Part shown: positions 6,633-57,343 of the stretch, piece by piece
Layout: every line of letters starts with the position of its first letter
Numbering within the stretch: position 1 is the first letter of the stretch
DNA from: an uncultured Polyangiaceae bacterium
GTDB lineage: Bacteria; Acidobacteriota; Thermoanaerobaculia; Multivoradales; JAHEKO01
DNA: 64,000 bases
Assembly: GCA_964195975.1 (NCBI GenBank)
Contig: CAXMQZ010000037.1
Coordinates: forward strand, 23,721 to 87,720
Direction: 5' to 3'
Translations under genes and position numbers: made by a program
The notes under the pieces: model-generated
Seen by the model: only the letters and a program-made list of their open reading frames with translations
Databases searched by the model: none
Told to the model about the DNA's origin: nothing

Positions 6633-6751
6633 ATGGCCTGTCGGAGGCTCGCCAGATGTTTAGAGAGGTCGACCACAGGCTGTCAGTTCTGGAGGCGGGA
6701 TCCTGCTACCTTTCGAGGGCGAACAGAGAGACTTGTGGCGAGTCTCGATAA
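6155..6751 (+). CDS. Hypothetical protein (one predicted TM segment); doubtful gene
   Basis: 198-aa ORF with no recognisable motifs. It overlaps the rne leader region and the 5' extension of the rnd ORF. Confidence 0.2.
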   Translation: MRWEKTALGKAQRTTQGTKRIERTRIYLSPVFVAIALFGFESQKPEEEVSVEEPRLVMATSKGPSELLKRKMQCWYCQSEAVLSEIRTSWSGVALAIGQGGKNRIEEPCRRLRADVDALVARAPPPAPDSITRIYLSRGITLIRKATENCTENRIFALSHGLSEARQMFREVDHRLSVLEAGSCYLSRANRETCGESR

Positions 6752-6785
6752 TCACCACCGCAGCACTGCTATTATCAGCGGCGCT

Positions 6786-7937: not shown

Positions 7938-7951
7938 TCTGCAGGCGATCT

Positions 7952-18568: not shown

Positions 18569-18768
18569 CGATCGGCCGGTTCTGTGGCACCCAGGCGCCG
18601 GACCAAAAAGGCCATGGCGAGGGAGATCAAAAGACAGTAGCCGATATGATAGGCGAGACCGACAGGGATTCCACCTAGTACGGTGTCATATCTCCGCCAG
18701 AGCCAGAAATCGTTGTGAAGGAGGTAGAGCACCGCCAACATGAACGCAACAGTGAGACTTCTATTCAA
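18565..18768 (-). CDS. DUF3311-like small membrane protein (SSS-transporter partner; YhdT-like)
   Basis: 67 aa with two TM helices. ATGA overlap with the symporter gene. YhdT/PanF-like small subunits typically sit upstream of SSS transporters. Confidence 0.5.
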   Translation of the reverse strand: MNRSLTVAFMLAVLYLLHNDFWLWRRYDTVLGGIPVGLAYHIGYCLLISLAMAFLVRRLGATEPADR

Positions 18769-20030: not shown

Positions 20031-20032
20031 GG

Positions 20033-22243: not shown

Positions 22244-22282
22244 ACGGCTGAATAGCCCGGGAGGTACGGTGGTTGTGGTGGA

Positions 22283-24738: not shown

Positions 24739-24787
24739 CTTGAGGCTTTGCCTCGAGAGCAAGTATTGCCCACAGGTTTCGAGAAGG

Positions 24788-26002: not shown

Positions 26003-26009
26003 CATTGCC

Positions 26010-40648: not shown

Positions 40649-40690
40649 CTCGATCGAATCGAGTCATCTCGACGACTTCTCGAATACCGT

Positions 40691-41921: not shown

Positions 41922-41923
41922 GT

Positions 41924-44011
41924 TCAGCTGGACGGTGTCTCTGATTTGGGCTTGCGGCGAAGAATCCATAACAGCATCGATGCGGCGCCAATCAAAAGCA
42001 TCACACCGCGCCGCGGACTGCCCAGGATCAGGTCTCCTGTGCCGGCCAGCGAACCGAATAGGACGAAGAGGGCGGCTCCAAACCTCAACGCAGTACCAGC
42101 CATCGACTCGGGAGGTGTTGGACTCCAACGGGCCCAGGCCTTTGAAGGGGGTCGTACCAGAGTGGCAAATCGCCTCAGCGTAGCGTCGTCGTTTCGAGGG
42201 CCGAAAAGCGAGACTGGAATCCATGTGGCCAAACTGACTCCGGCGATCATCATGATCTTGCTCCATCCCGGCACTGCGGTTACGAAGAACGGATTGGGCC
42301 CTCCAAACAGGGTTTCGGTGCCAAAGACTTCGAGCCCCACACCAAGAAGCGTCGTGACACCCATGGCTGCGAGCTCGGCATAGGCAGTCACTCGTGGCCA
42401 GAACCATCTCAGGGCGCTCACCGAACCCAGCCCTGCACCGAGCGTGACCAGAAACCGCCAAACGGAAGCGATATTTTGAATCTGCAGTGCGACCAGCCCT
42501 GCGATGACCGCGATCAGGAGCACGCTGAGTCTCGAGACAAAAACGTAGTGTTGTTGACTCTGATCCGGGCGAATAAAGCGACGATAGAGGTCCTGGACGA
42601 GATACGAGGCGCCCCAGTTCACATGCGTGTCAATGGTGCTCATGAAGGCAGCCAACAGACTTGCCACGACAAGGCCGAGGAGGCCACTCGGAAGCACCTC
42701 TCTCATCACGAGAGGGTAGGCCATCTCGCGATCGAGCAACTCGATGCGGAAGCCGGAGAAGTGCACTCCCGGATCCTGGCCCGGACATGAAAGGCGAAGA
42801 TCGAAGACTCCGGTGTCATCGAAGCCGCGAAAGGACGCCATGTGTTTGCCTGGGCCGACTTTCTCGAGCGGTCGGCTCTGTCCTGCCAGATCCGCGTCGC
42901 AGTTGTCAGGTAGCCCAAGAAAGACCAGTGTGCCACCGGTCGCGAGATCGAGGGTCGATGGGGAAACCAGGGCAGTGTGGGTACCCTCAGGATCGATGGG
43001 CCCTTGAATCTCCAGTCTTGCATCGGGGTTCCCGGGCAGTTGGGGGAACAAGATCAATGATCCCAGTCCAATCAAGATCCACGGCCAGGGTCTGAACGCG
43101 TTGTGCACCACCGCGAACCAGATCATGGCGCCTTCGGCCTGAGCCTCGTCGCGGCATGCTGCCATTCGCTGTACGAAGTATCCGACGCCTTCTGCCCATC
43201 GCCACCAACCCGCAATGAGTAGAGTCAAGAAAAATATCGGGGGAAGGGTAGGGTGATCCGAGGGCGGTATCAGGTCCAGAACGTCGGCCAGCGATCGATC
43301 GCCGGTGGTCTCGACCGCTGTAGCGACTGCGCCCAAGAGGCCTGAGGGTGCCTCTGTTTCTGTTGGTGCATTACCGAGACCGCCGAATTGACTGACCAGC
43401 AAGACCGCTAGAACTATGGCTCCGACGGCGCTGAGTCCAAACTGAACGAGATCGGTGACCACAACACTTCTGAATCCACCCATCAGCGTGTAGCTCACCG
43501 AAACCGCAATACAGATAGAGATGACGACGATGGGCTCGACCTCGAAAAAGGCTCGACTGATCTTTACCATGGCGGCGATGACCCAGGCCATGGTCAGACA
43601 GTTGATGAAGAGACCGAAGTACAGAGCTTTGATCATGCGAAGTGCCGCCGCGGGTCTTCCGCTGTAGCGAATCTCGGTTATCTCGGCATCTGTAATGACA
43701 CCGGAGCGACGCCACATTCGCGCGAAGAAAAAAGCCGCTGTCAGATGAGCGATAGCGACGGCCCACCAGATCCAATTTCCGCTGACTCCGTCTGTTGCAA
43801 CTATGCCGGTAACCAGCAGCGGCGTGTCAGCTGCGAAGGTCGTTGCGACCATCGAGGTGCCCGCGACCCACCAGGCGAGTTTCCGATCGCCAACAAAAAA
43901 GCTTTCGGTACTCCGGCCAGCTTGCTTTGAGAAGAAGACCCCGGCACCAAGGGCGAAGGCCATATAGGCGGCTATGATCGAGAGATCGAGAAGGGATAGG
44001 CCGTCGGGCAC
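41924..44011 (-). CDS. Sodium:solute symporter family transporter with a large (about 150 aa) soluble insertion
   Basis: 695 aa. SSS-like N-terminal helices, an inserted hydrophilic segment ...FPQLPGNPDARLEIQGPIDPEGTHTALVSPSTLDLATGG...RLSCPGQDPGVHFSGFRIELLDREMAYP..., then further helices. Confidence 0.7.
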   Translation of the reverse strand: MPDGLSLLDLSIIAAYMAFALGAGVFFSKQAGRSTESFFVGDRKLAWWVAGTSMVATTFAADTPLLVTGIVATDGVSGNWIWWAVAIAHLTAAFFFARMWRRSGVITDAEITEIRYSGRPAAALRMIKALYFGLFINCLTMAWVIAAMVKISRAFFEVEPIVVISICIAVSVSYTLMGGFRSVVVTDLVQFGLSAVGAIVLAVLLVSQFGGLGNAPTETEAPSGLLGAVATAVETTGDRSLADVLDLIPPSDHPTLPPIFFLTLLIAGWWRWAEGVGYFVQRMAACRDEAQAEGAMIWFAVVHNAFRPWPWILIGLGSLILFPQLPGNPDARLEIQGPIDPEGTHTALVSPSTLDLATGGTLVFLGLPDNCDADLAGQSRPLEKVGPGKHMASFRGFDDTGVFDLRLSCPGQDPGVHFSGFRIELLDREMAYPLVMREVLPSGLLGLVVASLLAAFMSTIDTHVNWGASYLVQDLYRRFIRPDQSQQHYVFVSRLSVLLIAVIAGLVALQIQNIASVWRFLVTLGAGLGSVSALRWFWPRVTAYAELAAMGVTTLLGVGLEVFGTETLFGGPNPFFVTAVPGWSKIMMIAGVSLATWIPVSLFGPRNDDATLRRFATLVRPPSKAWARWSPTPPESMAGTALRFGAALFVLFGSLAGTGDLILGSPRRGVMLLIGAASMLLWILRRKPKSETPSS

Positions 44012-44047: not shown

Positions 44048-45568
44048 TCACTGCGGTCGAGCCCGCCCCCGTCGGATCCCGACAAGACTTGCCAGGAACC
44101 GCCAGTCTTTTCGTCCAGCGAGCCCGGTCAGGGTCGCCAGGGTTGCGAAAACCGGAAGATAAATCGCGACCTTGATCAGAAGATCGAAGGCGGCCGAGGC
44201 ATCGATCATTCTTGCCGCCAACAGTGCCGGGATGCTGGCCAGAGCGGCAACCGTGAGTGTGCGGCAGTAGAAACCAAAAGGGAACACCTCTCTCAGCGGT
44301 ACGTTTAGAACTTGACTGAGAGCAAGCAGGACATAGAGCCAGGCTATGAACGTTGCGATCAAGGTAGATATGGCGGCACCGACCATTCCCAGCCAGAGGA
44401 CAAAAGGCACACTCAAGATCAGATTTATGACGGCTGATAGTCCTGCCCAAGCCGTAATGACACGAGTCTTGTTGATCGCTTTTAGGACTGCACTGTAGTC
44501 AGCCACTCGCTGAAAGAGGGTCAGAGAATAAATGCTGAACACGATTGCTGCGCCTTCGTACTCCCGTGAAAAGAGCAGCACGATGAGCTCCCGCGAAATC
44601 AGAACGAACATCACCATCAGAGGTAGGACCATCACGCTCACCTTGGTGATCGACTTCGTCCAAAGTGACAAAAGCTCCTCTTTGTTGCCTTCCAAGTAGG
44701 AGGTGACCAAAGGGATCATCATCACCGAGGCGACCGAGGTGGCAATCATCGGTACGAGAGGTATCTCCCAGGCCCCAACTGAGTATTCCGCAAACACGAC
44801 CACCGGGAGCAGAAACATTACGACGTACTTGTCGATGAATTGGTTGATCTTCCAAAGCAGGTCTGCGATTCCAAGGGGCACCGAGTAGCCCAGGACCTGC
44901 CAAACCATATCGCCGGGTAGAGTTGCACCTGTCTTCTCGAGCTCATGCGAGAAACAGATACTGGTCACGATGACCCGAAAGACGCCATAACCAACGAGTG
45001 CATAGCAGACAGTCTGTATTGGCCGACCTAGGGCAGCAGGAACGACCATGGCTGCAAACAACACAAAACTGAACAAAATCGTAACTCGGGCCGCCTGCTT
45101 GGTCTTTCCGAGTGCGATCAGAACGTTTTGGATGGGATAGGTGGGCAGCTCAATGATGACCAGAAAGGCCAACGGGATCATCAGCCCGACAACGTCGTAG
45201 CCCCGTGAGGAAGCGATCAGGCCGATCAGCAAGAGCAGCAGAGCACCACCGACCGCGATGTAGAATAGGATCCTGCTGATCAAGAAAACGAAAGCGCGAT
45301 GTGCATCCTCCTTCACGATCCCGAGGTAGTAGAAGACACTACCGGGTAGACCGAGTTGGGCCAAAGAGGTGACTGCCAAATAAGTCAGGAGAGCAAAGCT
45401 GAGCAGGCCAAAATCTGGTTTGGGCAGCAACCGGGCGAGAATAGCGATCCCAGCGATACGCGTGATCCCACCGACCGCTTTGCTGACAACGAGAATGCTG
45501 GCTTTCGAGGCGAGCGCGGTCTTCTCCGAGGGACCTGAGCTCTGATCAGCTGGGGACGAAGTGGTCAA
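44048..45568 (-). CDS. MOP-superfamily flippase (Wzx/polysaccharide biosynthesis protein family)
   Basis: 506 aa with about 14 TM helices. N-terminus ...ASILVVSKAVGGITRIAGIAILARLL... is typical of the Wzx/PST family. Confidence 0.7.
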   Translation of the reverse strand: MTTSSPADQSSGPSEKTALASKASILVVSKAVGGITRIAGIAILARLLPKPDFGLLSFALLTYLAVTSLAQLGLPGSVFYYLGIVKEDAHRAFVFLISRILFYIAVGGALLLLLIGLIASSRGYDVVGLMIPLAFLVIIELPTYPIQNVLIALGKTKQAARVTILFSFVLFAAMVVPAALGRPIQTVCYALVGYGVFRVIVTSICFSHELEKTGATLPGDMVWQVLGYSVPLGIADLLWKINQFIDKYVVMFLLPVVVFAEYSVGAWEIPLVPMIATSVASVMMIPLVTSYLEGNKEELLSLWTKSITKVSVMVLPLMVMFVLISRELIVLLFSREYEGAAIVFSIYSLTLFQRVADYSAVLKAINKTRVITAWAGLSAVINLILSVPFVLWLGMVGAAISTLIATFIAWLYVLLALSQVLNVPLREVFPFGFYCRTLTVAALASIPALLAARMIDASAAFDLLIKVAIYLPVFATLATLTGLAGRKDWRFLASLVGIRRGRARPQ

Positions 45569-45651
45569 CGCGGGGCGGCCTCTTGGGCTCGCTTTTCAGC
45601 TGCATGTAGGGGAGAAGTGTCGCTAGGCTCGATGCTCCCCATTCGAACCAC

Positions 45652-46629
45652 CTACCTCGCCTCGAGGGCGTTGCGGTCACAAGTATACCAAGCATGGGTT
45701 CTGCCAAGACCTTCATTCAAATTCACCTGCGCCGTGAAATCCGTGGCCTTTTGTAGCTTCTTCGGGCTGCACACGAACCCCTCCGACAGGATCTCGCGAT
45801 ACTTCGATGGTGTCAGCAACGGGTTGAGACCGAGCTTCGCAGCGGGTACTCCAAGGGCCATGACCAACCAAAGAATGTTTCGAGGCACCCGAGTTGGCCG
45901 GTAGGTTTTATGGCAGGTCCGTGCCAGCACGCTTAGGAAGTCGTCGGCTGTGTGTGGCTCGTTGTGAGCGACAAAAAACACCTCCGACAGGGCCTGTGGG
46001 TGACAACCGACGATCTCGATAGCTCGAACCAGATCGCTGATGTAGAGGAATGAGAACGCCGAGTCAGGCTTGGCCAGCACCGGGAAGAAGCCACGCCAGG
46101 CGCAGCGGAAAAGAGAGAGAAAGTCCCGATCGCCGGGACCGTATACTGCGCTGGGTCGCAGGATCGTATAGGCGAGGCCGTCGATTCTGCGGACTGCCTG
46201 CTCACCGGCCAGCTTACTCTTGCCGTAGTCAGTTATCGGGTCAGGGATATCTGTTTCGGTCCGAGGCTTTTGTAGAGTTCCGGTGCCGGCAGCGGCCTGA
46301 CTCGATACATGGACGAGTCGAGCTCCGCTAGCCCGAGCCGCCAGCGCCACTTGTTCTGCTGCCCCCGCATTTGCGGGCAGATAGTCCTTCAAGCTCGGCG
46401 CACGGGTTTTCCCGGCTAGGTGAATCACCAGGTCGCAGCCATTGAAGGCCACGGTCAGCTCGTTGCGCTGCAGCGGGCTGACGACAGGCTCCGACTCTGC
46501 CGGAGGCGCTCTTGTGGTCTCGGGCCGCAGAATCGCGCGAACCTGCCAACCAGCTCTCGCCAGATGCAGAGAGAGGTGTCGCCCAATAAAGCCGGTCGAG
46601 CCCGTGACAGCAACTTTGCCTTCCATCAC
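45652..46629 (-). CDS. NAD-dependent epimerase/dehydratase-family (extended SDR) protein
   Basis: Rossmann motif VAVTGSTGFIGRHL. 325 aa with a YxxxK region. In this context it is a candidate 3-ketosphinganine-type reductase (inference). Confidence 0.8.
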   Translation of the reverse strand: MMEGKVAVTGSTGFIGRHLSLHLARAGWQVRAILRPETTRAPPAESEPVVSPLQRNELTVAFNGCDLVIHLAGKTRAPSLKDYLPANAGAAEQVALAARASGARLVHVSSQAAAGTGTLQKPRTETDIPDPITDYGKSKLAGEQAVRRIDGLAYTILRPSAVYGPGDRDFLSLFRCAWRGFFPVLAKPDSAFSFLYISDLVRAIEIVGCHPQALSEVFFVAHNEPHTADDFLSVLARTCHKTYRPTRVPRNILWLVMALGVPAAKLGLNPLLTPSKYREILSEGFVCSPKKLQKATDFTAQVNLNEGLGRTHAWYTCDRNALEAR

Positions 46630-46689
46630 AGCTGTTCTTGAAAGATCCGATAGGTTTTGTAGACAATGCCACCCGCGACCCTGATTTCG

Positions 46690-47913
46690 CTAGATGACAC
46701 CCAAGGACTTCCCGACGCGGTCGAAGGCGAACAGGATCTCTTCGATGTCGTCGTGGCTATGTCTGGCAGTAATGCTCGTCCGGACAATACACTCACCGTC
46801 GGGCACGCCTGGTGGTACTGCAGGCGACGTGAAGATCCCCTCGTCCCACAGCGCTTGCCAGAAGCGAAATGTCTTTGATTCCTCGCCTATCAGAACCGGC
46901 ACAATCGGGGTCTCGGAACCGAGGGTGTCGAAACCCAGTTCATGCATGCTTTTGCGGTAGAACTTGACATTCTGCTGTAGCTTTTCGCGTCGCCAGGTCT
47001 CTTTTTGAATTAATTCGAGGGCCTTGGTAGTGGCAGCGATCTGCATTCCGGGGAGCGCAGCCGTAAACATGAAGGGTCGCGCGACGCAGCGAACATAGCC
47101 CACGATATCGGTGTCTCCGCCGATAAACCCTCCTACCGAGCCGAATGCCTTGGAGAAGGTGCCCACGACGAGGTCTACACCCTGTTCCTGACCAAGATGC
47201 TCCGCAGTGCCACGACCTGCCTTGCCAAGGACTCCGGTTCCGTGTGCATCGTCGACTAGAAGGCCAGCATCGTACCGCTCGGCCAGCTCTACGAGTCGAT
47301 CCAACGGCGCGATGTGACCGCTCATGGAGAAGACACCATCGGTGACGATGAGCCGCCCACCGGGGCGATCGGAGTCCTTCTCGAGGAGGTGCGCGAGCTG
47401 GTCTATGTCGTTGTGTCGATATTTTCGGATCTTCGAGAATGAGAGTCTCGAGCCGTCGTAAAGACTGGCATGATTCTCACGATCAAAGTAGAGAATATCC
47501 TTTCGACCTCCGAGGGCGCTCAAGGCGCTCAGGCAGCCTTGAAATCCGGTGCTGAAGGTGAGAACACTCTCGACCTGAAGAAACTCGGCCAACTGTTCTT
47601 CTAGACGGTCATGCAACACCAGGGTTCCGGTGAGAAACCGTGAGCCGGTACAGCTCGTGCCATAGCGATCGAGAGCGCGGCGTGCGGCGGCCTTGACTCT
47701 CTCATCGCAAGCCAGGCCAAGATAGTCGTTGGAGCATGCAACAAGCTTCTCCTCTCCTTCGACCATCCATCGAACACCAGCATTGGTTTCGACTTGGCGA
47801 AAGTAGGGTTTGAAACCGGCCGCGGCAAGGTCTGCCAAGCGGACGTACTGCTGTGCTTTCTCGAACACGGCCTTGGGCCGTCTCGAGTCGTCGACTGTCT
47901 CAGGAATCACCAT
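46690..47913 (-). CDS. Alpha-oxoamine synthase family PLP enzyme, serine-palmitoyltransferase-like
   Basis: 407 aa. The PLP-lysine region GTFSKAFGSVGGFIGG is FSK...GGF as in SPT, unlike GTLGKA of BioF/Kbl. Confidence 0.7.
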   Translation of the reverse strand: MVIPETVDDSRRPKAVFEKAQQYVRLADLAAAGFKPYFRQVETNAGVRWMVEGEEKLVACSNDYLGLACDERVKAAARRALDRYGTSCTGSRFLTGTLVLHDRLEEQLAEFLQVESVLTFSTGFQGCLSALSALGGRKDILYFDRENHASLYDGSRLSFSKIRKYRHNDIDQLAHLLEKDSDRPGGRLIVTDGVFSMSGHIAPLDRLVELAERYDAGLLVDDAHGTGVLGKAGRGTAEHLGQEQGVDLVVGTFSKAFGSVGGFIGGDTDIVGYVRCVARPFMFTAALPGMQIAATTKALELIQKETWRREKLQQNVKFYRKSMHELGFDTLGSETPIVPVLIGEESKTFRFWQALWDEGIFTSPAVPPGVPDGECIVRTSITARHSHDDIEEILFAFDRVGKSLGVI

Positions 47914-47961
47914 TGGACACCACCCTTGTTCTATGTTTTCACTAATAAACGTCGGGAGAGA

Positions 47962-48585
47962 CTAGCTGTCAGCCTCCAGTGCGTCGATTCGATTCCTGAG
48001 ACGCTCGATGACAGTTTCTACCGACGAGACTCTCAACATTCTCGCAAATTGTTTTCGATAATTCTTAATCGTATCCACTCCATCCACAACGTAGTTGGTG
48101 ATCACCCAACTATCTTCGGATGGAATCAAATAGTAGTCGAGCTCAATGTCATCCTCACCATAGCGCGCGATCGTTCGCACAGTTGCTGTCTCGCCATCGA
48201 TATCCTCGCCTACGTACTCAAAACTATCGGCGCGATACCTTCCAAGTTTTCTTACCGACGAGACTCGAAGAAGCTCCCTGAAGACCTCTTTGAAGGTCTC
48301 GCAATCATCGCCAGCGGCAGGATCACAGAGACCGTCGATCGCCTCATTCGCAATGGTCGAAAAAGAGGTCATCTGATCCATAACATCGAAAACCTGTTCG
48401 TTCACGTCCGAGTCGGCTCTGCCGGAGTCTTTCGAATAGAGATCCAGGATCTCATCGTTCGACTCTCGAATTACCTGTAATGGTCCTTCTTGGGCAACAG
48501 CCGGAGAAATTGAGACCAACAGGAGAGTTACCGTGGCGGCATACCGCAACAGATCTACAATTTTAGCTGATTTCGACCGTTTCAT
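47962..48585 (-). CDS. Secreted hypothetical protein, possibly MlaC/Ttg2D-like lipid-binding periplasmic protein
   Basis: Signal peptide MKRSKSAKIVDLLRYAATVTLLLVSISPAVAQ. About 200 aa of mixed alpha/beta composition. Context only; no diagnostic motif. Confidence 0.35.
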   Translation of the reverse strand: MKRSKSAKIVDLLRYAATVTLLLVSISPAVAQEGPLQVIRESNDEILDLYSKDSGRADSDVNEQVFDVMDQMTSFSTIANEAIDGLCDPAAGDDCETFKEVFRELLRVSSVRKLGRYRADSFEYVGEDIDGETATVRTIARYGEDDIELDYYLIPSEDSWVITNYVVDGVDTIKNYRKQFARMLRVSSVETVIERLRNRIDALEADS

Positions 48586-49981
48586 GATCAATCCACTCCA
48601 GGTAGAGCTCAATGCGCCCCAATGTCAACGCTATGCGGGCCAGGGCGAGCTGATACTGAGCTTCTTGCTCGATGACTATCGCACCGAGCTCGTAGTATTG
48701 GCCGTAGGCGTCTACCAGCCGGTCGACGCTACCAAGACCGAGGTCCCAATTATCACCGCTTAGTCTCAGCCAGCGTTTTGCCGCCTTCTTGGATCTCTTG
48801 GCAGCATCGAGTAAATCTGAGAGAGCCTTTGCTTCCGCATAGGCTCGGGTGACCTCGATAATCAGTCGATCTTCGAGAACCGACAGTTGCTCGATGGCTT
48901 CCTGCCGCTCGACAGATGATTGGCTGATGGCCAGTCGGTGATCGGCAAACTTGAGGTTCCACCGAAGACCCAAGAAACCACCGATTGTCCGCAGGTTGAA
49001 TGGATCCAGAATGAAAGGATTTCTGATATCGGTTCGGTTTGGAGCGCGAGCGTAGGCCCCACCCAAAGCGAGAAAGATGTCGGGCCACCTGGACGCCTCG
49101 GCTAGCGCCAATTTACTATCGAGTGCGCCGAGGCCGGCACGGGCTTGTTGGATCGGCGGACTCGAATCCATTGCCATTGTGATTAGTGAGTCCAACATGT
49201 CCTCGTCTGGTAGCCCCGGTGTCCCCGCAGGAGCGAAGCTATCCGAATCGAGCTTGCCCCAGTCGAGCAGGACCTCCAACGATGCACCCGCAATCTCCTG
49301 ATTCTTGACACTCTGTCTGCCCGCGGCTCTAATCCCGTACTCGAAGCTCTGCACTTCGAATAGGCGTGTGTCATCTACGTCGGAGTCGGGGTCATTCGCA
49401 GCTCGCTCGACCTCCTCGAGCAATCTCTCGTAGTCCTTTTGCAAATCCTCGGCCAGATTGACACCACGATTTGCCGATTCAAACCCCCAAAACGCCTGCA
49501 CGACTTGGAATCCGAGCTTCGCAGCTGTGAAATCTCTACCGAACTCCCGTACGAGAACACCCTGCTCGGCCGCGGCTCGAGCGGAGGCGATCTTTCCAAA
49601 AGTCGTAAGCGGCTGGGCGATCCTAAGGTCGAATCGATAAAATACCCCCAGATTGTTGAGGTCTTCGTTGGAGTCCGGTGACTCGAAGATGTTTCCTTTT
49701 GCTTGCGGGACCAAACCCGTCTTGAAGTCGAGATCGATACTGGGTAGTTTTGTGTTCTTGACTTCCTTGACGTCGAGCTCGGCACGCTGCACTTTGTAGC
49801 GCTCGGCCTGAACGACTGGATGGGTCGCAAGGGCGTGTTCGACGGCTTCGCGTAGGGTATGGCGTGCGGAGTCGTCAACCGCGTCGGTCGTCTGGCTGTG
49901 GGTCACTTCGGGGATTAAAAGGCACAAGAACAGTACTGTCCACGGTAGCGACCGCGGGCTGTTTGACAATGAATTGTGCAC
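48563..49981 (-). CDS. TolC-family outer-membrane efflux channel
   Basis: 472 aa. Signal peptide plus an internally duplicated helical/beta structure. The N-terminal ...LREAVEHALATHPVVQAERYKVQRAELDVKEVK is the typical OEP start. Confidence 0.75.
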   Translation of the reverse strand: MHNSLSNSPRSLPWTVLFLCLLIPEVTHSQTTDAVDDSARHTLREAVEHALATHPVVQAERYKVQRAELDVKEVKNTKLPSIDLDFKTGLVPQAKGNIFESPDSNEDLNNLGVFYRFDLRIAQPLTTFGKIASARAAAEQGVLVREFGRDFTAAKLGFQVVQAFWGFESANRGVNLAEDLQKDYERLLEEVERAANDPDSDVDDTRLFEVQSFEYGIRAAGRQSVKNQEIAGASLEVLLDWGKLDSDSFAPAGTPGLPDEDMLDSLITMAMDSSPPIQQARAGLGALDSKLALAEASRWPDIFLALGGAYARAPNRTDIRNPFILDPFNLRTIGGFLGLRWNLKFADHRLAISQSSVERQEAIEQLSVLEDRLIIEVTRAYAEAKALSDLLDAAKRSKKAAKRWLRLSGDNWDLGLGSVDRLVDAYGQYYELGAIVIEQEAQYQLALARIALTLGRIELYLEWIDHETVEIS

Positions 49982-50080
49982 TCTTAGGACGGACCCTGGA
50001 CTTAGTTCAACACTTGGAGTCGAGCGGGGTGGCTCAGATCTTCTACGAGCGGGACGGCGTTCCAGCTTCGCGCGATCGGA

Positions 50081-50764
50081 TCACCGTGTGGTCCGTACTC
50101 TTCGTTCCCTGGAGATACGGGTTCCAAACGCCATGTCCCAGATGACGCTGCTGACACCGAACCCGCGGTCGGGATCATGGTAATGGTGCACCACATGGTG
50201 TTCTTGGAGACGCTTCCAGATAGGGTGGCGAAGCGGCGCATGATAAACGGCGTAATGGATCATGTCGTAGGCTAGATAGCCGACCAGAAACCCGGCTGAT
50301 GCAGCATAAAAGACACCACCATTTCCGAGGGTCAGCCGAAATAGCAGGTAGAAAGGAATCACCAGAATCACTGCCAGGAGCGGTGGCATCACAAGCCGTT
50401 TCTGATCGTTTGGGTAGTCGTGGTGAATACCGTGTAGCAGGAAGTGCCACCTTTTCCCCAGATCGCTCGAGGGTTCGTAGTGAAATACGAACCGGTGAAG
50501 CAAGTATTCGGACAAGGTCCAAAAGAAGACGCCACCCGTAAAGAAGAGAAGCAGCTGCGCGGGCTGGTTGCCTGAAAATTGTGCGGCTTTATACAGACAA
50601 AAGCCGACTATCGGAACCCAAAAAATCAGAGGGTAGGACCAGTGGACGTATGACTGAGCGTCGAGCGTTGGGTTTTTGAAGAGTCGGATCGACTCCTTCG
50701 CGTTTGAAACATACATTTTGGACACTTGGATCTCACCTCCGCGGAGACCGGCGCATCCCTCCAC
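50081..50764 (-). CDS. Fatty-acid hydroxylase superfamily (sterol desaturase/FA2H-like di-iron membrane enzyme)
   Basis: Four His boxes: HRFVFHY, HGIHHDYP, HYAVYH, HHVVHHYH. Confidence 0.8.
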   Translation of the reverse strand: MEGCAGLRGGEIQVSKMYVSNAKESIRLFKNPTLDAQSYVHWSYPLIFWVPIVGFCLYKAAQFSGNQPAQLLLFFTGGVFFWTLSEYLLHRFVFHYEPSSDLGKRWHFLLHGIHHDYPNDQKRLVMPPLLAVILVIPFYLLFRLTLGNGGVFYAASAGFLVGYLAYDMIHYAVYHAPLRHPIWKRLQEHHVVHHYHDPDRGFGVSSVIWDMAFGTRISRERRVRTTR

Positions 50765-50841
50765 AAACGCGCCCTACTTTGCCGTCTTATGCCTGGACAA
50801 AACGGCTGACAACGTCGAAGTATACTGTACTCGATGAGAGG

Positions 50842-51813
50842 CGAACCGTGTTAGAGATCCTGACCCGGCTCAAAGCGGACCTGCAGCGTGTAGGGAAGCC
50901 TCGAGAGGTTGAAGGTGTTCTGGATCGCTTTCTCATCCGACCTTGCGGGTATGTAATAGCGCGATGGCTGACGCCGAGTTGGGTAAGCCCCAATTTTCTG
51001 TCGTTGTTGGCCTTAGCCTTCGGATGGCTCACCGCTTACTGTCTCTTTGAAACGGCCAGATTGGGAAACCTTCCCGTCTACTCCGGGCTTGCCGCTCTGT
51101 CGATGGTACTTCACTCTGCTTTCGACAGCGCCGACGGTCAGCTGGCCCGTGCTAGAGGGACGACCAGTGAGTTTGGCCGCATACTCGATGGGATATGTGA
51201 CTATCTCAGTTTTGCAGCTATCTATCTGGCTATCGGTCTCGGTCTGGGAGTCAGAGCAGGAACGGGAATGACTCCCTTCGTTCTTTCAGCGGTGGCGGCG
51301 GGTCTATCGCATGGCCTTCAGTGCGCTGTGGTCGAGAATCAACGCAATCTGTACCGACACTACGTACATGGCGCCGAGCTTCCCTTCGACGCTTCAGAGC
51401 CCGAACCAGGTGCGCAGATCGAGAGCGAGTTGGGCTTCCTACAACTCATACACGGGGCCTACTCCAAGCTTCAGATGGTTTTTGGGGGCTCGAGTCTTCG
51501 CTTGTGGCGCAAGGTCGACGGCTGGCAGCAGAGCCATTCTAGCGACTCGGATCGAATCGTTGGCCTGATAGTTGCTAATAACTTGAAGCGATTGCCTTTG
51601 TGGGCCCTGCTGGCGCCAAATTCTCACAAAGTAGGGATGATCGTCGGAGCTTTTATTCCAGTAGGAAGCAGTACGGTTTTCGGAGAACTGGGTCTGTTTT
51701 GGTACTTTCTCTATGTCGTTGTAGGTCTGAATCTACTGATGATCGTAATGATTTTCACCCAATCATTGGTAGATCGCCGAACCTGGGTTGCGCTAATGGA
51801 AGATTCCCACTGA
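50842..51813 (+). CDS. CDP-alcohol phosphatidyltransferase family protein; start uncertain (ORF opens at 50704, overlapping the hydroxylase; GTG near 50842 with GAGAGG upstream)
   Basis: Signature D-x2-DG-x2-AR-x8-G-x3-D-x3-D as DSADGQLARARGTTSEFGRILDGICD. Confidence 0.75.
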   Translation, partial: RTVLEILTRLKADLQRVGKPREVEGVLDRFLIRPCGYVIARWLTPSWVSPNFLSLLALAFGWLTAYCLFETARLGNLPVYSGLAALSMVLHSAFDSADGQLARARGTTSEFGRILDGICDYLSFAAIYLAIGLGLGVRAGTGMTPFVLSAVAAGLSHGLQCAVVENQRNLYRHYVHGAELPFDASEPEPGAQIESELGFLQLIHGAYSKLQMVFGGSSLRLWRKVDGWQQSHSSDSDRIVGLIVANNLKRLPLWALLAPNSHKVGMIVGAFIPVGSSTVFGELGLFWYFLYVVVGLNLLMIVMIFTQSLVDRRTWVALMEDSH

Positions 51814-51814
51814 A

Positions 51815-53152
51815 GTGCTCGGGCGCGATGGCTCGACTAGCCGGAACAAGTCTCGGACGATGAGATCAATCGTCACTGTTACAACTCCCCGTGCCTTCGA
51901 CGAGCTCGGCGGACTCATGTTGTGGCAACGTGTGATCAGGACTCTGGGACATCTAGGCTCAGAGTCGGTTCAACTGATCATCGTTCCCGAATTGTCTGAG
52001 TTGGGATTGAAAGAGAGTGTGTGGCAAGAGTCGTATCTCGATGATGGCGATATCCAGGCCGTTGCGGGGAAGTCTCTGACTTCGGTCGATCTCCTCGAGA
52101 TGGCCGGGGAGGGCGAGGGGCCGATTCTTGTCGTGCCCGGAGAATCCGTTTTTGACCCGCGGATCCTCGAATTCTGTTTGAACCAGACCGCTCCGGTTGC
52201 CTGCGTCGACCGAGATCCGCCGGCAGAGTGGCGAGCACTGGTGGAAAACGCCCCACGGGTCGGCGATGCTCGATTCTGTGGTCCCGTGGTAGTAACAGAT
52301 GAATGGCTGAATCGGTATCCAGGGGACTTTCCTGACGCTGTCGCAAAGACTATTGCGCATGGATCACTGCCGACAGTTGACGTCGACTCCTTGCCGACAA
52401 GAGCAGGGAATCTACGACGAGATGTCAGACCCTTTTGGTTCCCAGCGCCAGATTCCAAAGACAGAAGCTTGGCAAGGCGTCTGCTGTTGTCTTCGACTCA
52501 GAAGGGCTCACTCGACCTTCCTGCAATGGTTCATGCTCCGATTGAGAAGCTCGTGGCCTGGAGCCTGGCGGGGACCAAGATCACTCCCAACATGGTCACT
52601 GTTCTGACTACTCTGGTTGCCTGGGTTGCCACCGTCATGTTTATCCGGGGCCATCTTGTCACCGGTCTCGTACTTGCTCTGATGGTTGGAGTATTGGATG
52701 GTGTTGACGGCAAACTGGCGCGTCTACGATTCGAGTTCTCCAGATTCGGCGAGCTCGAGCACTGGCTGGATTTTCTGTACGAATGGTCGTGGTGGGTCGC
52801 GCTGGCCTACTACTTCTCGAGCTCTGGTCTGCTCCCACAAGCCTGGCGCGTTCTTGGACTGCTAGCCTTCTTCGAAGTTGTCGATGGCTTGGCCAAGGCG
52901 ATCAGTATTGTCTCGTTTGGGCGTCTCATCGACGAAATATCTCCGTTTGAAAGGATGGTGCGAATCTTTGGTGGTAGGCGTAACGTATATATTTGGCTCA
53001 TGGTTCTCGGAACGGTCTTGGGAAAGCCTGCAGCGGCCTTTGAGATTTTGCCAATCTGGCAGGGAGCTACCGCGATTCTTCACTGGATAAGACTCCCCTG
53101 GCTTTTTGCCAATTCTCGTAAAGAGCAGCGGATAGGTGGAATCACCGGATGA
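51815..53152 (+). CDS. Two-domain protein: N-terminal ~230-aa soluble domain (possibly degenerate nucleotidyltransferase-like) fused to a CDP-alcohol phosphatidyltransferase membrane domain
   Basis: C-terminal domain has LDGVDGKLARLRFEFSRFGELEHWLD (CDP-OH_P_transf-like). The N-terminal domain lacks a clear GxGTR motif. Confidence 0.6.
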   Translation: MLGRDGSTSRNKSRTMRSIVTVTTPRAFDELGGLMLWQRVIRTLGHLGSESVQLIIVPELSELGLKESVWQESYLDDGDIQAVAGKSLTSVDLLEMAGEGEGPILVVPGESVFDPRILEFCLNQTAPVACVDRDPPAEWRALVENAPRVGDARFCGPVVVTDEWLNRYPGDFPDAVAKTIAHGSLPTVDVDSLPTRAGNLRRDVRPFWFPAPDSKDRSLARRLLLSSTQKGSLDLPAMVHAPIEKLVAWSLAGTKITPNMVTVLTTLVAWVATVMFIRGHLVTGLVLALMVGVLDGVDGKLARLRFEFSRFGELEHWLDFLYEWSWWVALAYYFSSSGLLPQAWRVLGLLAFFEVVDGLAKAISIVSFGRLIDEISPFERMVRIFGGRRNVYIWLMVLGTVLGKPAAAFEILPIWQGATAILHWIRLPWLFANSRKEQRIGGITG

Positions 53153-55563
53153 TGGACCGGTTGTGGCGGATTGTCTCGCGGGTCTCAGCAGAACATACCT
53201 GGTGGGTGCTGGGCATGACCCTGTTGGTCAGTATTCCTGCCTTCTTGTCGGTAAAGAATATCGGGCTCGACACCAACCTGAAGCGACTTCTTCCTGAGCA
53301 TGCGCCGTCGGTCCGGTGGAGCCGCGAGCTCGAGGAGTCGGTCGGAGACGGGGGGTACTTCGCGATCCTAATAGAGGGAGATGATCGTCAAGTATTGATC
53401 ACTACGATCGAAGAAATAGCCGACAGGGTAGGGGATCTCCCCTCGATTCAATCAGTTGATTATCGAAACCCCAAAGAGTTTGTCGACGAGTATCGCTACA
53501 CCCTGCTACCCAACTCACTTCTCGAGGAGCTCAGAGACGAGATCGAGCGGTGGGAGATCGAAGTCAATCCGTTTCTACTCGACCTGGATGCCCCCGAGAC
53601 CTCCGATACCCAAGCTGATGACGACGAGGAGGATGCCGATCGCTTGGAGAAATTCCTGACTCACTACGTGCATATGGACGAATATCAGGCCGACTCGGAG
53701 GGTCGTATTTTTGGCATGATCATTAGACCCAAGGAAGGTATCTCGAATCTAGCCAGCCTGAGAGAGCTGTACGGTGAGCTTCAGAGGATCACTGCCGAAT
53801 CGGTCGAGGGGAAGGGGTTGTGGTGGGGCATCGGAGGTAATCTTCGTACGCGGGTCGACGAGTTCGATCTGATCGTCTCGGATCTAGGAAGGGCCGGATG
53901 GGTCTCGGCAATAGCGATTCTGCTGACTTTGGCGATCAGCTTTCGGTCCTTCAAAGTCCTGCCAGTTATCCTCTACCCTTTGGCGATGGGTCTTCTGTGG
54001 TCGTTCTGCTTTGTCCCGACTTTGGTGGGAGATCTGAATACTATTACCGCGTTTCTCTTGTTGGTGTTGTTTGGCATGGGCGTGGACTATGCAATCCACC
54101 TCGTGAGCCGATTTGAGGTCGAATTGACCTCGCGGTCTCCCGAAGAGGCGCTAGAGGAGACCCTTCGATCGACAGGTAGATCGGTAGCGACCTCCGGTGC
54201 GACTACGGCCATAGCTCTACTGATTCTGTCGGTGTCCGATTTTAGGGGTTTTTCGGACTTTGGCATCATCGGCGGAACCTCGATCGGAGTCATCACATTG
54301 GCAATGCTTTTTGTATGGCCGGCCTGTGCCGTCGCCGGCGTCAAGCTCGGACTCGTCTCGGCGGGAAAGCCCTCGACCGAGGGATGGGCTCTACCGCTCC
54401 CAGGGCCTATCGTAATAGTTGGGGTGTTAACGCTTGTTGGCCTATCGATATTCGCCGCTCGGGAGTACCTTCAGTTCGACTACGACTTCACCAAATTAAG
54501 CGCCACTATCCCGGGCAAGGAAGAGATCAACGAGAAACAGAGAAAGGTCTATCCTGCCACCTCTGCACCTGCGGCTCTCTATGTAGCCAGAGACCTCGAA
54601 GCTCTCGATCAGATTATGGCTTTGCTGGAGAAAAAGCGCGACGAAGCAGCCGATTCCCCGACTATTGGCACGATCAACAGCATCAGAAATTTCGCTCCGA
54701 GCCGTTCGCAGTTCGACCGTCGACTCGAGACTATCGCCGAGATGCGGGATTCACTCCAAGGTCGGTGGGTAAGAAAGATCGACGATCCTGATCGAAAGGA
54801 GATCATTGAAGACTTTCTGGCATTCGAGCCACCGAACAACCCCCCACGCATCGACGAGGTTCCAGTATCGATCAGCCGAGAGCTGATGGCTCGCGATGGC
54901 TCTGGAGCGTTGGTGACCGTCGACACCGATGGGCGCAGTCGGGATGGCAGGATGGCCATGGCGTTTACCAGGGACCTTTATGAGATCGACCTTCCTGAGG
55001 GCGTGCGGGGACCCACAGGTGAAAAACTCGTACTTGCGGAGATACTTTTCCTGGTCACCGGCGAGAGTGCCTGGATTGTGGCTCTCACTTTTGGAGGGAT
55101 TTTTATCCTGGTCCTCCTGGATCGGAGATCGGTCATCCAGACAGTCTGGGTCTTGGTGCCGCTGGCGGCTGGCATTCTTCTGACTCTGGGAGCCATGGTA
55201 GTACTCGGCTGGAAGCTGAATTTCTTCAATCTGGTCGTACTGCCAACGATGTTAGGAGTTGGGGTGGATCATGGTGTGCACTACTACCGGCGATGGCGGG
55301 AGGTCGACGGCGACACCCGTTCGACCCACTACGAGTTGTTTGGACCCATCACGATCGCGTCGGTAACCACGATGATGGGTTATCTCGGCATGGTGCTCGC
55401 ACACCACCCAGGCTTGCGCTCGATCGGACTGCTCGCGCTTGTCGGATTGACGGCTACCTGGTTTACAGCTCTGGTGCTGCTACCGGGTCTTCTTTGCTGG
55501 CAGAGGGGTTGTATGCCAGGTCTTCTTCGATTGCAGAAGAGTCCTAGGACTGAAAGTTCGTAA
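53149..55563 (+). CDS. MMPL/RND-superfamily exporter (HpnN/MmpL-like lipid transporter)
   Basis: 804 aa with two 6-TM bundles, each preceded by a large periplasmic domain. 4-nt overlap with the upstream gene. Confidence 0.8.
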   Translation: MMDRLWRIVSRVSAEHTWWVLGMTLLVSIPAFLSVKNIGLDTNLKRLLPEHAPSVRWSRELEESVGDGGYFAILIEGDDRQVLITTIEEIADRVGDLPSIQSVDYRNPKEFVDEYRYTLLPNSLLEELRDEIERWEIEVNPFLLDLDAPETSDTQADDDEEDADRLEKFLTHYVHMDEYQADSEGRIFGMIIRPKEGISNLASLRELYGELQRITAESVEGKGLWWGIGGNLRTRVDEFDLIVSDLGRAGWVSAIAILLTLAISFRSFKVLPVILYPLAMGLLWSFCFVPTLVGDLNTITAFLLLVLFGMGVDYAIHLVSRFEVELTSRSPEEALEETLRSTGRSVATSGATTAIALLILSVSDFRGFSDFGIIGGTSIGVITLAMLFVWPACAVAGVKLGLVSAGKPSTEGWALPLPGPIVIVGVLTLVGLSIFAAREYLQFDYDFTKLSATIPGKEEINEKQRKVYPATSAPAALYVARDLEALDQIMALLEKKRDEAADSPTIGTINSIRNFAPSRSQFDRRLETIAEMRDSLQGRWVRKIDDPDRKEIIEDFLAFEPPNNPPRIDEVPVSISRELMARDGSGALVTVDTDGRSRDGRMAMAFTRDLYEIDLPEGVRGPTGEKLVLAEILFLVTGESAWIVALTFGGIFILVLLDRRSVIQTVWVLVPLAAGILLTLGAMVVLGWKLNFFNLVVLPTMLGVGVDHGVHYYRRWREVDGDTRSTHYELFGPITIASVTTMMGYLGMVLAHHPGLRSIGLLALVGLTATWFTALVLLPGLLCWQRGCMPGLLRLQKSPRTESS

Positions 55564-55603: not shown

Positions 55604-56554
55604 CTATTCGGATTCTTGCCGTCGAAAGGAATCCGTAGCTGATGCCCTCCGCACGCACGAGATCGTGCACCGGTCTTCGCAGCCCTTTCGAGTATAGAAC
55701 TCTCTCAGGCGATGATCTTTGGTGTACTCGCTCAACGGGATACCAGGATCATTTCGTCGCTGACTGCAGTATGAGACGATCCCGTCCTCATCTACATAGA
55801 GATACCGGGCGCCAGCGCGGCATTTCCAGGGAGCCGAACCGTCTCTAATGATCTTCGACTCCCAGCCTTCACCAACGTGGTGGAGAAGGCTCTTACGGCT
55901 TCGCCCATGAATCTCTTGATAGAAATCCGCCAGACTGTCGCCGAGAAGACCGGGGTCGAGTTGGCCCTCCTGGTCATGCATCAGGCCGACGGTCATATAA
56001 AAGCCCATTTCTTGAACACCCTGCACGACCTCACGTGTTTCCTCGAGGTTGCTGGATCCGAGCACGGCGTTGACGGTCACCTTGAACTTGGCATGATCGC
56101 GCAGCAGGGCCAGACGCTCCTTTAGACTCGACCAGGATTTTTCGGAAACTTCGTTGGGCTCCAGGTTGTCGATTGAGACCTGTAGGATCGTGAGCCCGGA
56201 GTCGTTGAGTCGCTCGATCCAGCGTGAAGTCAAGGTGTATCCGTTCGTGATCGACGTACAAACCATCCCGCGCGATACTGCGTAGCGGATCAATTCGTCC
56301 AACATTGGATGGAGAAGAGGCTCACCGCCCGTCAGGGTCAATACAACTGTGCCTGCATCGGCAATTTGATCGATGCGCTCGATCAAGTCTCTGGTGTCGA
56401 CTGGCGGAGAAACGTGGTCAAACTCGTTACAGTACCCGCAGGCAAGATTGCAGCGACGGGTGACAACTAGTTGGACAAGGACAGGTTTTGAAGGCGAAAG
56501 TATTGCCGCGCCCGCTCGGGCCAGGGAGCGAATAGGTGGGTTGGGTAGAAGCAT
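55604..56554 (-). CDS. Radical SAM enzyme with C-terminal Cys-rich (twitch/SPASM-like) region, function unknown
   Basis: CNLACGYC (CxxxCxxC) and GGEPLL. C-terminal cysteines ...WKCRAGARY...SYCSQ...KGCEDRCTISC. Confidence 0.75.
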   Translation of the reverse strand: MLLPNPPIRSLARAGAAILSPSKPVLVQLVVTRRCNLACGYCNEFDHVSPPVDTRDLIERIDQIADAGTVVLTLTGGEPLLHPMLDELIRYAVSRGMVCTSITNGYTLTSRWIERLNDSGLTILQVSIDNLEPNEVSEKSWSSLKERLALLRDHAKFKVTVNAVLGSSNLEETREVVQGVQEMGFYMTVGLMHDQEGQLDPGLLGDSLADFYQEIHGRSRKSLLHHVGEGWESKIIRDGSAPWKCRAGARYLYVDEDGIVSYCSQRRNDPGIPLSEYTKDHRLREFYTRKGCEDRCTISCVRRASATDSFRRQESE

Positions 56555-56569: not shown

Positions 56570-57343
56570 CTAGTCTGAGGTCGATCGAACGGATAGCTCG
56601 GTCAACAGATCGCGGGCGTCGGATGTTGCCAGGCGAAGATCGTCCGGTGTGTCGATATCGATCCACATGCGTGGTCCAGGGAGAGTCGCAGCCAGGACCA
56701 ATCCCTTGGAAGCGCAGTGCCGAACACCGTCGGAGAGTGAGAACCGGGAATTTGCCTGTGCGGTCTCGAGACCCTCTGCAAGAGTTTTGGTGCAATAGAA
56801 AAGCCCGGAATCACCGGCATCCCACGACGTAAGCTCTTTACCGATGGCGACTACGTGACCGGCTTCGGTTTGTACTTTTGTCAGATCATCGAGATCGACG
56901 ATCGATCCCGGAAAGGGATCCACGGCCAGAGTGATCTTGTCTGCGTCCATGTCAAAATCGATCAGGTACCTGATCATCTGGGGAGAGAACAAGTGGTCAG
57001 CCATAGAAAGTAGGAACGGTCGCGGCGAGAAGGATCGAGCGAGGGCCAAAGCCGTGACACCGTTTCCCTTCTCCCAACCCTGGACGGTCACGAACTCGAT
57101 ATCGATCCCAAGTCGTTCAGCAATATCCAAGTAGTTATTACGCACCATGTCGGCTTTGAACCCGAGCCCGACTCGGAACTCGCGCACTCCGGCGGCGTAG
57201 AATGCATTCAGACTCCACTCCGCAATGGTTGCCCCATGAAGTGGCATGCATGGCTTCGGTAGTTTCTCGTCCACTCCTCGCAGCCGGGTGCCTTCACCGG
57301 CAGCGAGAATGGAGACGGGTAGGGGTAGAGCAGTCTCCATCAC
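56570..57343 (-). CDS. Nucleotidyltransferase (sugar/alcohol-phosphate cytidylyl-/guanylyltransferase fold); candidate CTP:inositol-1-phosphate cytidylyltransferase
   Basis: ILAAGEGTRL (GxGTRL) motif near the N-terminus. 257 aa. Adjacent to inositol-3-phosphate synthase. Confidence 0.65.
   Translation of the reverse strand: MMETALPLPVSILAAGEGTRLRGVDEKLPKPCMPLHGATIAEWSLNAFYAAGVREFRVGLGFKADMVRNNYLDIAERLGIDIEFVTVQGWEKGNGVTALALARSFSPRPFLLSMADHLFSPQMIRYLIDFDMDADKITLAVDPFPGSIVDLDDLTKVQTEAGHVVAIGKELTSWDAGDSGLFYCTKTLAEGLETAQANSRFSLSDGVRHCASKGLVLAATLPGPRMWIDIDTPDDLRLATSDARDLLTELSVRSTSD

Follow-up and report, generated by a model that had tools for sequence, protein, structure and literature searches.

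A TolC-like, MlaC-like, and MMPL gene set without an adaptor gene as a candidate lipid-trafficking cassette in sphingolipid and inositol-lipid loci of largely uncultured bacteria

For hopanoids (PMC12324291), sterols (PMC10942540), and aryl polyenes (PMC8253772), sets made up of an RND transporter, a periplasmic carrier, and an outer-membrane partner have been proposed and in part demonstrated. Hopanoid transport to the outer membrane requires HpnN, and HpnM and HpnS were proposed as its partners on the basis of synteny and AlphaFold 3 models (PMC12324291). For bacterial sphingolipids, a 2024 paper stated that a flippase or transporter was still to be identified (PMC11087976), and a 2026 preprint, which calls the transport mechanism "a mystery", found Lpt paralogues in Caulobacter, predicted taxon-specific alternatives, and mentioned an MmpL gene beside spt in Myxococcus (bioRxiv 10.64898/2026.04.12.717747), hypothesised to encode a sphingolipid transporter (PMC11087976; bioRxiv 10.64898/2026.04.12.717747). 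Here, we describe three genes in a 64,000-nucleotide stretch of contig CAXMQZ010000037.1 (the window, meaning this whole stretch), from an uncultured bacterium placed in Acidobacteriota by GTDB. They encode a TolC-like outer-membrane protein (OEP), a secreted MlaC-like carrier, and an MMPL transporter, and probably constitute a conserved, adaptor-less cassette for trans-envelope trafficking. The cargo would be the specialised lipid that the neighboring biosynthetic genes produce, most likely an inositol lipid such as an inositol-phosphoryl (hydroxy)sphingolipid or a relative of it.

The locus is organised as a divergent operon pair departing from one 133-bp region (50715-50847), and each operon mixes transport and biosynthetic genes. 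The minus-strand operon contains, in order, genes for a hydroxylase, the OEP (48563..49981, 472 aa), the MlaC-like protein (47962..48585, 207 aa), a serine palmitoyltransferase (Spt)-like enzyme, an SDR-type reductase, a MOP flippase (44048..45568, 506 aa), and, in last position, a sodium:solute symporter (SSF). The plus-strand operon comprises two CDP-alcohol phosphotransferase genes followed by the MMPL gene (53149..55563, 804 aa). A third operon, with genes for myo-inositol-1-phosphate synthase (MIPS), a nucleotidyltransferase, and a radical SAM enzyme, converges on the MMPL gene. The initial annotation had recognised the flippase, MlaC-like, TolC-family, and MMPL genes and an overlap of the middle two; all four open reading frames (ORFs) were confirmed with Pfam matches above the cutoffs, and the overlap indeed measures 23 nt, the MlaC-like ATG at 48585 lying within the final OEP codons and the OEP stop ending at 48563. 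The second CDP-alcohol phosphotransferase gene and the MMPL gene overlap by 4 nt. Base composition is even throughout and thus gives no hint of a foreign insert. In a scan of 41.5-59 kb, promoter-like sites did not exceed the shuffled expectation and terminator-like matches were mostly intragenic, a result that is silent on operon structure.

The OEP matches PF02321 with 114.5 bits in two repeats and has an N-terminal signal peptide in which a canonical lipobox is absent. Its AlphaFold2 model, calculated as a monomer (predicted local distance difference test score [pLDDT], 82.9), adopts the topology of a TolC protomer with 4 strands (within residues 81-126 and 301-340) and helices of 66 and 69 residues (130-195 and 345-413). 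Foldseek matched this model to TolC, ST50, OprM, and CusC with E values of about 1e-17. Because a phmmer search against PDB sequences found no match, we regard the OEP as divergent in sequence; at the level of Pfam and the modelled fold, it is a member of the outer membrane factor/TolC family.

The product of the overlapping gene carries a Sec-type signal peptide ending in ...AVAQ and scores 79 bits against PF05494 (cutoff, 26). Its AlphaFold2 model (pLDDT, 84.7) retrieved exclusively MlaC/Ttg2D structures among its top 12 Foldseek matches in the PDB (TM-scores of 0.6-0.77), and an alignment profile of its homologs likewise matched MlaC/Ttg2D entries. By Pfam and predicted fold, it is thus a member of the MlaC/Ttg2D family, and it is predicted to bind lipid. 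HpnM was the sole NCBIfam match; however, orthology to HpnM was rejected, with 41.4 bits against a cutoff of 160 for TIGR03481 and no hopanoid genes among the window ORFs scanned. The subfamily is small: an exhaustive profile search of 1.84 billion proteins returned 54 representatives at E<=1e-30, and a word-indexed search found 29 clusters of homologs. Two members, P0219 and P0244, are secreted proteins of 610-625 aa with two tandem MlaC-like domains joined by Thr-rich linkers. They were considered as OEP-MlaC fusions, which would have been evidence of interaction, and were discarded, both being MlaC-MlaC tandems with no OEP part.

The MMPL protein (PF03176, 111.9 bits) has a 12-transmembrane (TM) topology with two periplasmic loops of ~200 aa according to its hydropathy profile, and Asp313 in TM4 and Asp707 in TM10 were invariant across 21 MMPL sequences. 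Such an Asp pair is the relay expected of an active proton-coupled transporter, as known from MmpL3 and HpnN. The closest solved structures were those of HpnN (5khn and 6wu0), followed by Dispatched and MmpL4/5, whereas ACR_tran reached 15.9 bits against a cutoff of 28, which places the protein outside the AcrB-type (HAE1/HME) transporters. It is a member of the MMPL/HAE3 RND family with predicted proton-coupled activity. Orthology to HpnN was rejected, since the scores for TIGR03480 (225 bits; cutoff, 752) and NF052374 (128 bits; cutoff, 1100) are far below these equivalog cutoffs and none of the window ORFs scanned matched a hopanoid-biosynthesis family above the curated cutoff. The second-best NCBIfam match was the BstA model (163 bits; cutoff, 1400), and the protein is not a BstA orthologue either. 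The subfamily forms a discrete group of ~80 clusters with 38-74% identity and at least 589 bits, the next matches falling to at most 216 bits and ~25% identity. One of these outgroup proteins, the Myxococcales protein P0126 (25% identity), is encoded on a short contig without an spt, OEP, or MlaC gene and is uninformative.

A scan of GTDB species representatives yielded 32 loci, all in metagenome-assembled genomes (MAGs), and the addition of metagenome contigs raised this number to 40 non-redundant loci; all locus counts rest on tblastn. They cover at least five phyla and include Acidobacteriota (among them Thermoanaerobaculia and Aminicenantes), Rokubacteria, Kapabacteria/Chlorobiota, Spirochaetota, and one Desulfopila MAG, and the closest named relatives of the window are Acidobacteriota MAGs. 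In 34 of the 40 loci (33 of the 37 that have enough upstream DNA), the MlaC-like gene is immediately preceded by the OEP gene on the same strand, and an MMPL gene of the same subfamily occurs within 10 kb in 31 of 40, directly downstream in 15. In a Kapabacteria-type locus (L022), all three genes mutually overlap, and in L042, a single co-directional run comprises the OEP, MlaC, CDP-OH transferase, MMPL, and MOP flippase genes. Starting from MMPL instead, each of three look-ups recovered the MlaC-like gene and two of them a clear OEP gene. Recurrence in 40 independent loci indicates that this arrangement is more than chance. Furthermore, the pairwise distance matrices of the OEP, MlaC-like, and MMPL proteins correlate (r=0.92-0.97), which fits co-inheritance, with shared organismal phylogeny also contributing. 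At two distant loci, one in Aminicenantes and one on a metagenome contig, a DUF3047 protein is encoded directly beside the OEP (L017:7851-8594 and L042:4009-4776) and may be an additional component.

These data bear on the notion of a merely coincidental neighborhood, with the TolC-like protein serving unrelated pumps elsewhere and the MlaC-like and MMPL proteins acting independently. A TolC protein often serves many pumps and is encoded away from their genes (reviewed in PMC8277102), and the window does hold a MacB-type ABC transporter (7952-12033, minus strand), composed of a 1132-aa FtsX/MacB_PCD permease and an ATPase. However, these MacB-like genes are located 37 kb from the TolC-like gene, with no adaptor gene adjacent to them, and the 23-nt overlap, the OEP-MlaC adjacency conserved across at least five phyla, and the correlated divergence of the three proteins all argue against coincidence, which is already disfavored and which we regard as highly improbable.

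No HlyD/membrane-fusion protein (MFP) adaptor was detected among the window ORFs scanned, among the top 25 Pfam families of 127 neighbor ORFs from 25 loci, or in the precomputed Pfam annotation of nine related contigs, and drug efflux was accordingly dropped as the main explanation. Conserved synteny with drug-efflux adaptor genes, set down beforehand as the observation that would contradict a role in lipid export, was not seen in relatives; the three genes travel with lipid-biosynthesis genes instead. The initial annotation had proposed a dedicated lipid-export set of four. For the TolC-like, MlaC-like, and MMPL genes, this interpretation is supported by synteny across the 40 loci, but it does not extend to the MOP flippase, which is linked in only ~8 loci. 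The flippase gene product (44048..45568, minus strand), a candidate inner-membrane flippase, belongs to the MOP/PST family (Wzx-like) according to its matches to Polysacc_synt_3 (PF13440; 46.5 bits, cutoff 23) and Polysacc_synt (PF01943; 33.4 bits, cutoff 28.2). Homologs occupy the same position in L004 and L040, immediately follow the MMPL gene in L042, and occur close to the core trio in L007, L017, L039, and L014. The flippase is therefore an occasional accessory and not a core part. In L001 and five Kapabacteria-type loci, an LPG_synthase_TM protein, resembling the membrane domain of MprF, is found instead of the MOP protein, suggesting that the flippase step may have been taken over by an unrelated protein.

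The genes around the cassette point to its cargo. Sphingolipid genes (Spt, GNAT-like, and SDR), inositol-lipid genes (MIPS, NTP transferase, and CDP-alcohol transferases), or both are present in 29 of the 40 loci; the order Spt, GNAT-like, SDR is kept in 14 loci, and a Pfam census of the 127 neighbor ORFs is led by CDP-OH_P_transf, glycosyltransferases, NTP transferases, and radical SAM. The neighbors are thus lipid enzymes, as opposed to efflux adaptors or drug-pump regulators. In the window, the alpha-oxoamine synthase gene (46690..47913, minus strand, 407 aa) most likely encodes Spt, given its PF00155 match (188 bits) and its best NCBIfam match to the serine palmitoyltransferase model NF047600, which at 412 bits remains below the cutoff of 640. 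The SDR/epimerase-family reductase (45652..46629, minus strand, 325 aa; PF01370, 95.9 bits) is a candidate CerR-like ceramide or ketosphinganine reductase. A member of the fatty-acid/sphingolipid hydroxylase family (50081..50714, minus strand; PF04116, 67.2 bits; likely start, ATG at 50714) is kept in L001, L004, L040, and L042.

Candidate parts of a CDP-inositol pathway are also encoded in the window: MIPS (57446..58591, minus strand, 381 aa; PF01658, 123.1 bits), an NTP transferase, and two CDP-alcohol transferases. The NTP transferase (56570..57343, minus strand; NTP_transf_3, 39.9 bits), homologs of which accompany the core genes in L011, L017, L030, L034, L040, L042, and L043, is a candidate CTP:inositol-1-phosphate cytidylyltransferase. 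The first CDP-alcohol phosphotransferase (50848..51813, plus strand, ~321 aa; PF01066, 49.5 bits; likely start, GTG at 50848) is similar to phosphatidylinositol-phosphate (PIP) and archaetidylinositol-phosphate synthases, the NCBIfam models for which it matches weakly. The second (51815..53152, plus strand, 445 aa; PF01066, 34.8 bits) has a DIPPS-like C-terminal domain and matches the NCBIfam models for IPCT/DIPPS and for archaetidylinositol-phosphate synthase. The window genes yielded no HAD hydrolase, while Kapabacteria-type loci carry the full CDP-inositol set including HAD, together with LPG_synthase_TM, beside the three core genes. Because this enzyme set matches two published schemes, the CDP-inositol ("alternative") inositol-lipid route proposed for Bacteroidetes (PMC9246714) and the bacterial ceramide route via Spt, an acyltransferase, and a reductase (PMC11087976), the gene content makes an inositol-phosphoryl (hydroxy)sphingolipid or a related inositol lipid the most likely product of the window locus.

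One step of the Spt-bCerS-CerR set is affected in the window itself. The Spt-like and SDR genes are present, and the GNAT-like, bCerS-like acyltransferase gene is reduced to its final 22 codons (...VYKTYRIFQEQL followed by the stop; 46629..46694, minus strand), which a tblastn search with the 368-aa protein from L040 matched to residues 347-368 of that protein. An alignment of the window with L040 by blastn skips ~1.04 kb. L004, L040, L001, and many other loci retain an intact copy between the Spt and SDR genes. All other cluster genes in the window are full length, and tblastn detected no bCerS-like gene in the window beyond the 22-codon remnant. Synteny and a weak GNAT match are the grounds for identifying the intact gene as bCerS. 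The host may encode an acyltransferase at another site, form a single-chain product, or have a recently damaged pathway; it is also possible that the 1.04-kb loss is an assembly artefact.

A single-chain sphingoid product would fit a duct better, and the lost N-acyltransferase-like gene thus lends some weight to an efflux or secretion function, in which the MMPL protein, the MlaC-like protein as a substrate catcher, and the TolC-like duct would together expel an amphiphile such as a free sphingoid base, a lyso-lipid, a toxic intermediate, or a secreted signaling or surfactant lipid. The OEP is predicted to be a full-length TolC-type duct, such ducts export amphiphiles, including glycolipids via DevBCA-HgdD (PMC6161253), and some loci adjoin genes for polyketide synthases (PKS) or nonribosomal peptide synthetases (NRPS). 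However, most relatives retain the Spt, GNAT-like, and SDR set, which would give two-tailed ceramides, and no MFP gene whose product could seal the inner-membrane pump to the duct was detected in the ORFs and contig lists scanned. Moreover, the HpnN-type RND proteins that have been characterized so far transfer membrane lipids to the outer membrane, according to the literature that PMC12324291 and PMC10942540 cite. We therefore consider efflux or secretion of an amphiphile unlikely.

In our favored reading, a trans-envelope lipid-trafficking cassette, the lipid would be assembled at the cytoplasmic face of the inner membrane and flipped by the MOP flippase or, in some relatives, by the MprF-like membrane protein or the RND transporter itself. 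The HpnN-like MMPL protein, driven by the proton motive force, would then pull the lipid from the periplasmic leaflet and pass it to the soluble MlaC-like carrier, which would ferry it across the periplasm. By analogy with MlaA-OmpC, HpnS, BstC, and ApeN, the TolC-family protein would act as the outer-membrane receptor or exit site. An inositol lipid or sphingolipid as cargo, anterograde movement, delivery to the outer leaflet, and physical contacts among the proteins are what this scheme would entail, and the lipid might either pass through the TolC duct or just dock at this protein. Going one step further, we tentatively propose that the coupled TolC-like/MlaC-like pair could be a hitherto unrecognized outer-membrane terminus, at which a TolC-family protein receives lipid from an MlaC-fold chaperone loaded by an adaptor-less RND pump, and that this could be the route of inositol lipids and sphingolipids to the surface in mostly uncultured diderm phyla, namely Acidobacteriota, Rokubacteria, Kapabacteria/Chlorobiota, and Spirochaetota; we regard this as conceivable, though not as the likelier outcome.

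Several points weigh against the lipid-trafficking reading. The lumen of TolC is hydrophilic. We know of no lateral gate in TolC and of no precedent for a two-tailed lipid being inserted into the outer membrane by this path. HpnN forms dimers and TolC forms trimers, and direct docking between the two is therefore disfavored. Canonical MlaC is generally viewed as acting in the retrograde direction. The reading rests on sequence data and structural models, and all relatives are MAGs or metagenome contigs. The loss of the GNAT-like gene may mean that the window's own pathway is altered or decaying, and in L042, an AcrB-type RND gene is located 2.7 kb upstream of the OEP gene. Three Rokubacteria loci have the order Spt-SDR-OEP-MlaC with MMPL absent within 10 kb, so the three genes are not an obligatory unit and OEP plus MlaC is the tightest one. 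Finally, 11 of the 40 loci are without recognizable sphingolipid or inositol genes, and two of these adjoin PKS/NRPS genes; the cargo is therefore not uniform, and the cassette is probably used for lipids of more than one class.

Two sets of loci illustrate such divergent surroundings. In L026 (2019-14189) and L041 (1-15400), the three genes stand beside PKS/NRPS, phosphopantetheinyl transferase, radical SAM/SPASM, and B12-radical SAM genes, which suggests a different lipid cargo. In L028 (529-5479) and its equivalents in L018, L021, L025, L027, L031, and L037, all from one Acidobacteriota group, MMPL is flanked by genes for an M14 carboxypeptidase-like protein of ~1000 aa, a DUF547 protein, and a GT2 glycosyltransferase, and not by CDP-alcohol transferase genes; because of these flanking genes, the head group may differ there, perhaps giving a glycosyl-ceramide.

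The MlaC fold of the carrier and the Rokubacteria OEP-MlaC pairs without a nearby MMPL gene would also suit a retrograde or homeostatic function, similar to that generally attributed to canonical Mla (see the Mla scheme in PMC12324291), in which the TolC-like and MlaC-like proteins would remove surplus or mislocalized lipid from the outer membrane and bring it back to the inner membrane, to be taken up there by the MMPL protein or another complex. The Desulfopila MAG (L034) can be read in the same way. In this locus (3934-8246), genes for a 927-aa protein with seven MCE (MlaD) domains, resembling LetB/PqiB, and for a pyridoxal phosphate-dependent enzyme precede the OEP-MlaC pair, and an MMPL gene is absent from the surroundings; in this organism, an MCE tunnel may be the partner of the pair. 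On the other hand, apart from this 7xMCE protein, no MlaA, MlaD, MlaE, or MlaF was found in the window ORFs scanned, the nine contig gene lists, or the top families of the 127 neighbor ORFs. RND/MMPL proteins are proton-driven exporters, and the relay Asp residues are invariant here. The genes are, in addition, embedded in and translationally coupled to biosynthetic operons, which fits product delivery better than housekeeping. A retrograde role of the cassette thus appears improbable to us.

Beyond the cassette and the enzymes considered above, further genes may be connected with the locus. The radical SAM enzyme (55604..56554, minus strand, 316 aa; PF04055, 74.1 bits), whose gene adjoins MMPL in L001, L004, L040, and L005, has weak, sub-threshold NCBIfam matches, among them the PqqE, viperin, MoaA, and BlsE models. 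Since several of these (viperin, MoaA, and BlsE) use nucleotide substrates, one might speculate that the enzyme modifies CDP-inositol. The SSF symporter (41924..44011, minus strand; PF00474, 122.8 bits), which at 695 aa is unusually long and is encoded at the same position in L004 and L040, could, speculatively, import inositol or a precursor. Together with genes for a WS/DGAT acyltransferase and a DUF445 protein, it occupies positions 39263-44011, a region collinear with the cluster in L004 and L040 that may be part of the same lipid locus. At the other end, a gene adjoining MIPS (58742-61729, minus strand) encodes a 995-aa protein with receiver-like and PPDK_N (phosphoenolpyruvate-utilizing, ATP-binding) domains, an arrangement kept in L040. 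A separate minus-strand gene run (18765-28600) encodes a Trp-halogenase-like flavoprotein, a TonB-dependent receptor, a HemN-like radical SAM protein, a PQQ/BamB-like beta-propeller, an Fe-alcohol dehydrogenase, an aldehyde dehydrogenase, and an AMP-binding enzyme; this run may represent a pathway for fatty alcohols or aldehydes that is connected with the WS/DGAT gene.

The TolC-like, MlaC-like, and MMPL genes provide a concrete three-protein candidate for the transport of sphingolipids or inositol lipids to the outer membrane, and they extend the recurring design of RND pump, periplasmic carrier, and outer-membrane partner known from hopanoids, sterols, and aryl polyenes. Should the TolC-like/MlaC-like route hold true, it would answer the question of sphingolipid transport in a second, unrelated way, beside the Lpt-paralogue system of Caulobacter. 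A TolC-family protein partnering with a soluble lipid chaperone in place of an adaptor would broaden the view of outer membrane factor roles, and the annotation of "efflux" genes in environmental genomes would be affected.

Among the described systems, HpnN-HpnM-HpnS of Burkholderia and other Pseudomonadota is alike in combining an HAE3/MMPL RND transporter with a secreted MlaC-like protein within a specialised-lipid locus and in having no MFP. The outer-membrane partner is an MlaA-like lipoprotein in that system but a predicted TolC-family protein here, and the hosts here are Acidobacteriota, Rokubacteria, Kapabacteria, and Spirochaetota MAGs. BstA-BstB-BstC of Methylococcus capsulatus (PMC10942540) likewise brings together an MMPL-type protein, a periplasmic carrier, and an outer-membrane-associated protein beside lipid genes; its carrier, however, is PhnD-like, its outer-membrane partner TPR-like, and its cargo a sterol. 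ApeM-ApeL-ApeN (PMC8253772) resembles the cassette in its dedicated RND transporter, periplasmic chaperone, and outer-membrane receptor within an aryl polyene cluster, the carrier and receptor there being LolA-like and LolB-like instead of MlaC-like and TolC-like. With the Mla system (MlaFEDB-MlaC-MlaA/OmpC), the cassette shares a soluble MlaC-fold carrier between an inner-membrane machine and an outer-membrane complex. Because no MlaA, MlaD, MlaE, or MlaF genes were found in the ORFs scanned, the window proteins are not an Mla system: an ABC/MCE complex in the inner membrane and an MlaA-porin complex contrast with the predicted proton-driven RND transporter and TolC-like protein here, and the direction of the cassette is probably anterograde.

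Tripartite pumps such as AcrAB-TolC and DevBCA-HgdD also have a TolC-fold outer membrane factor encoded with an inner-membrane transporter, and HgdD, which together with DevBCA exports heterocyst glycolipids, is a precedent for lipid export via a TolC-like protein (PMC6161253). The cassette is not a classical tripartite pump, because it has neither an MFP nor an AcrB-type RND transporter; its RND protein is of the MMPL/HAE3 type, and a lipid-carrier gene occupies the position expected for the adaptor gene. The LptFG-paralogue system of Caulobacter crescentus (bioRxiv 10.64898/2026.04.12.717747) is similar in that transport genes reside in a sphingolipid locus and delivery to the outer membrane is proposed, but it relies on an ABC/Lpt bridge, whereas an RND transporter, an MlaC-like protein, and a TolC-like protein are encoded here. 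What sets the cassette apart from all of these systems as new is that a TolC-family protein is the predicted outer-membrane partner and is tightly coupled to an MlaC-fold carrier, that no adaptor accompanies them, and that the genes are associated with inositol-lipid and sphingolipid loci of largely uncultured phyla.

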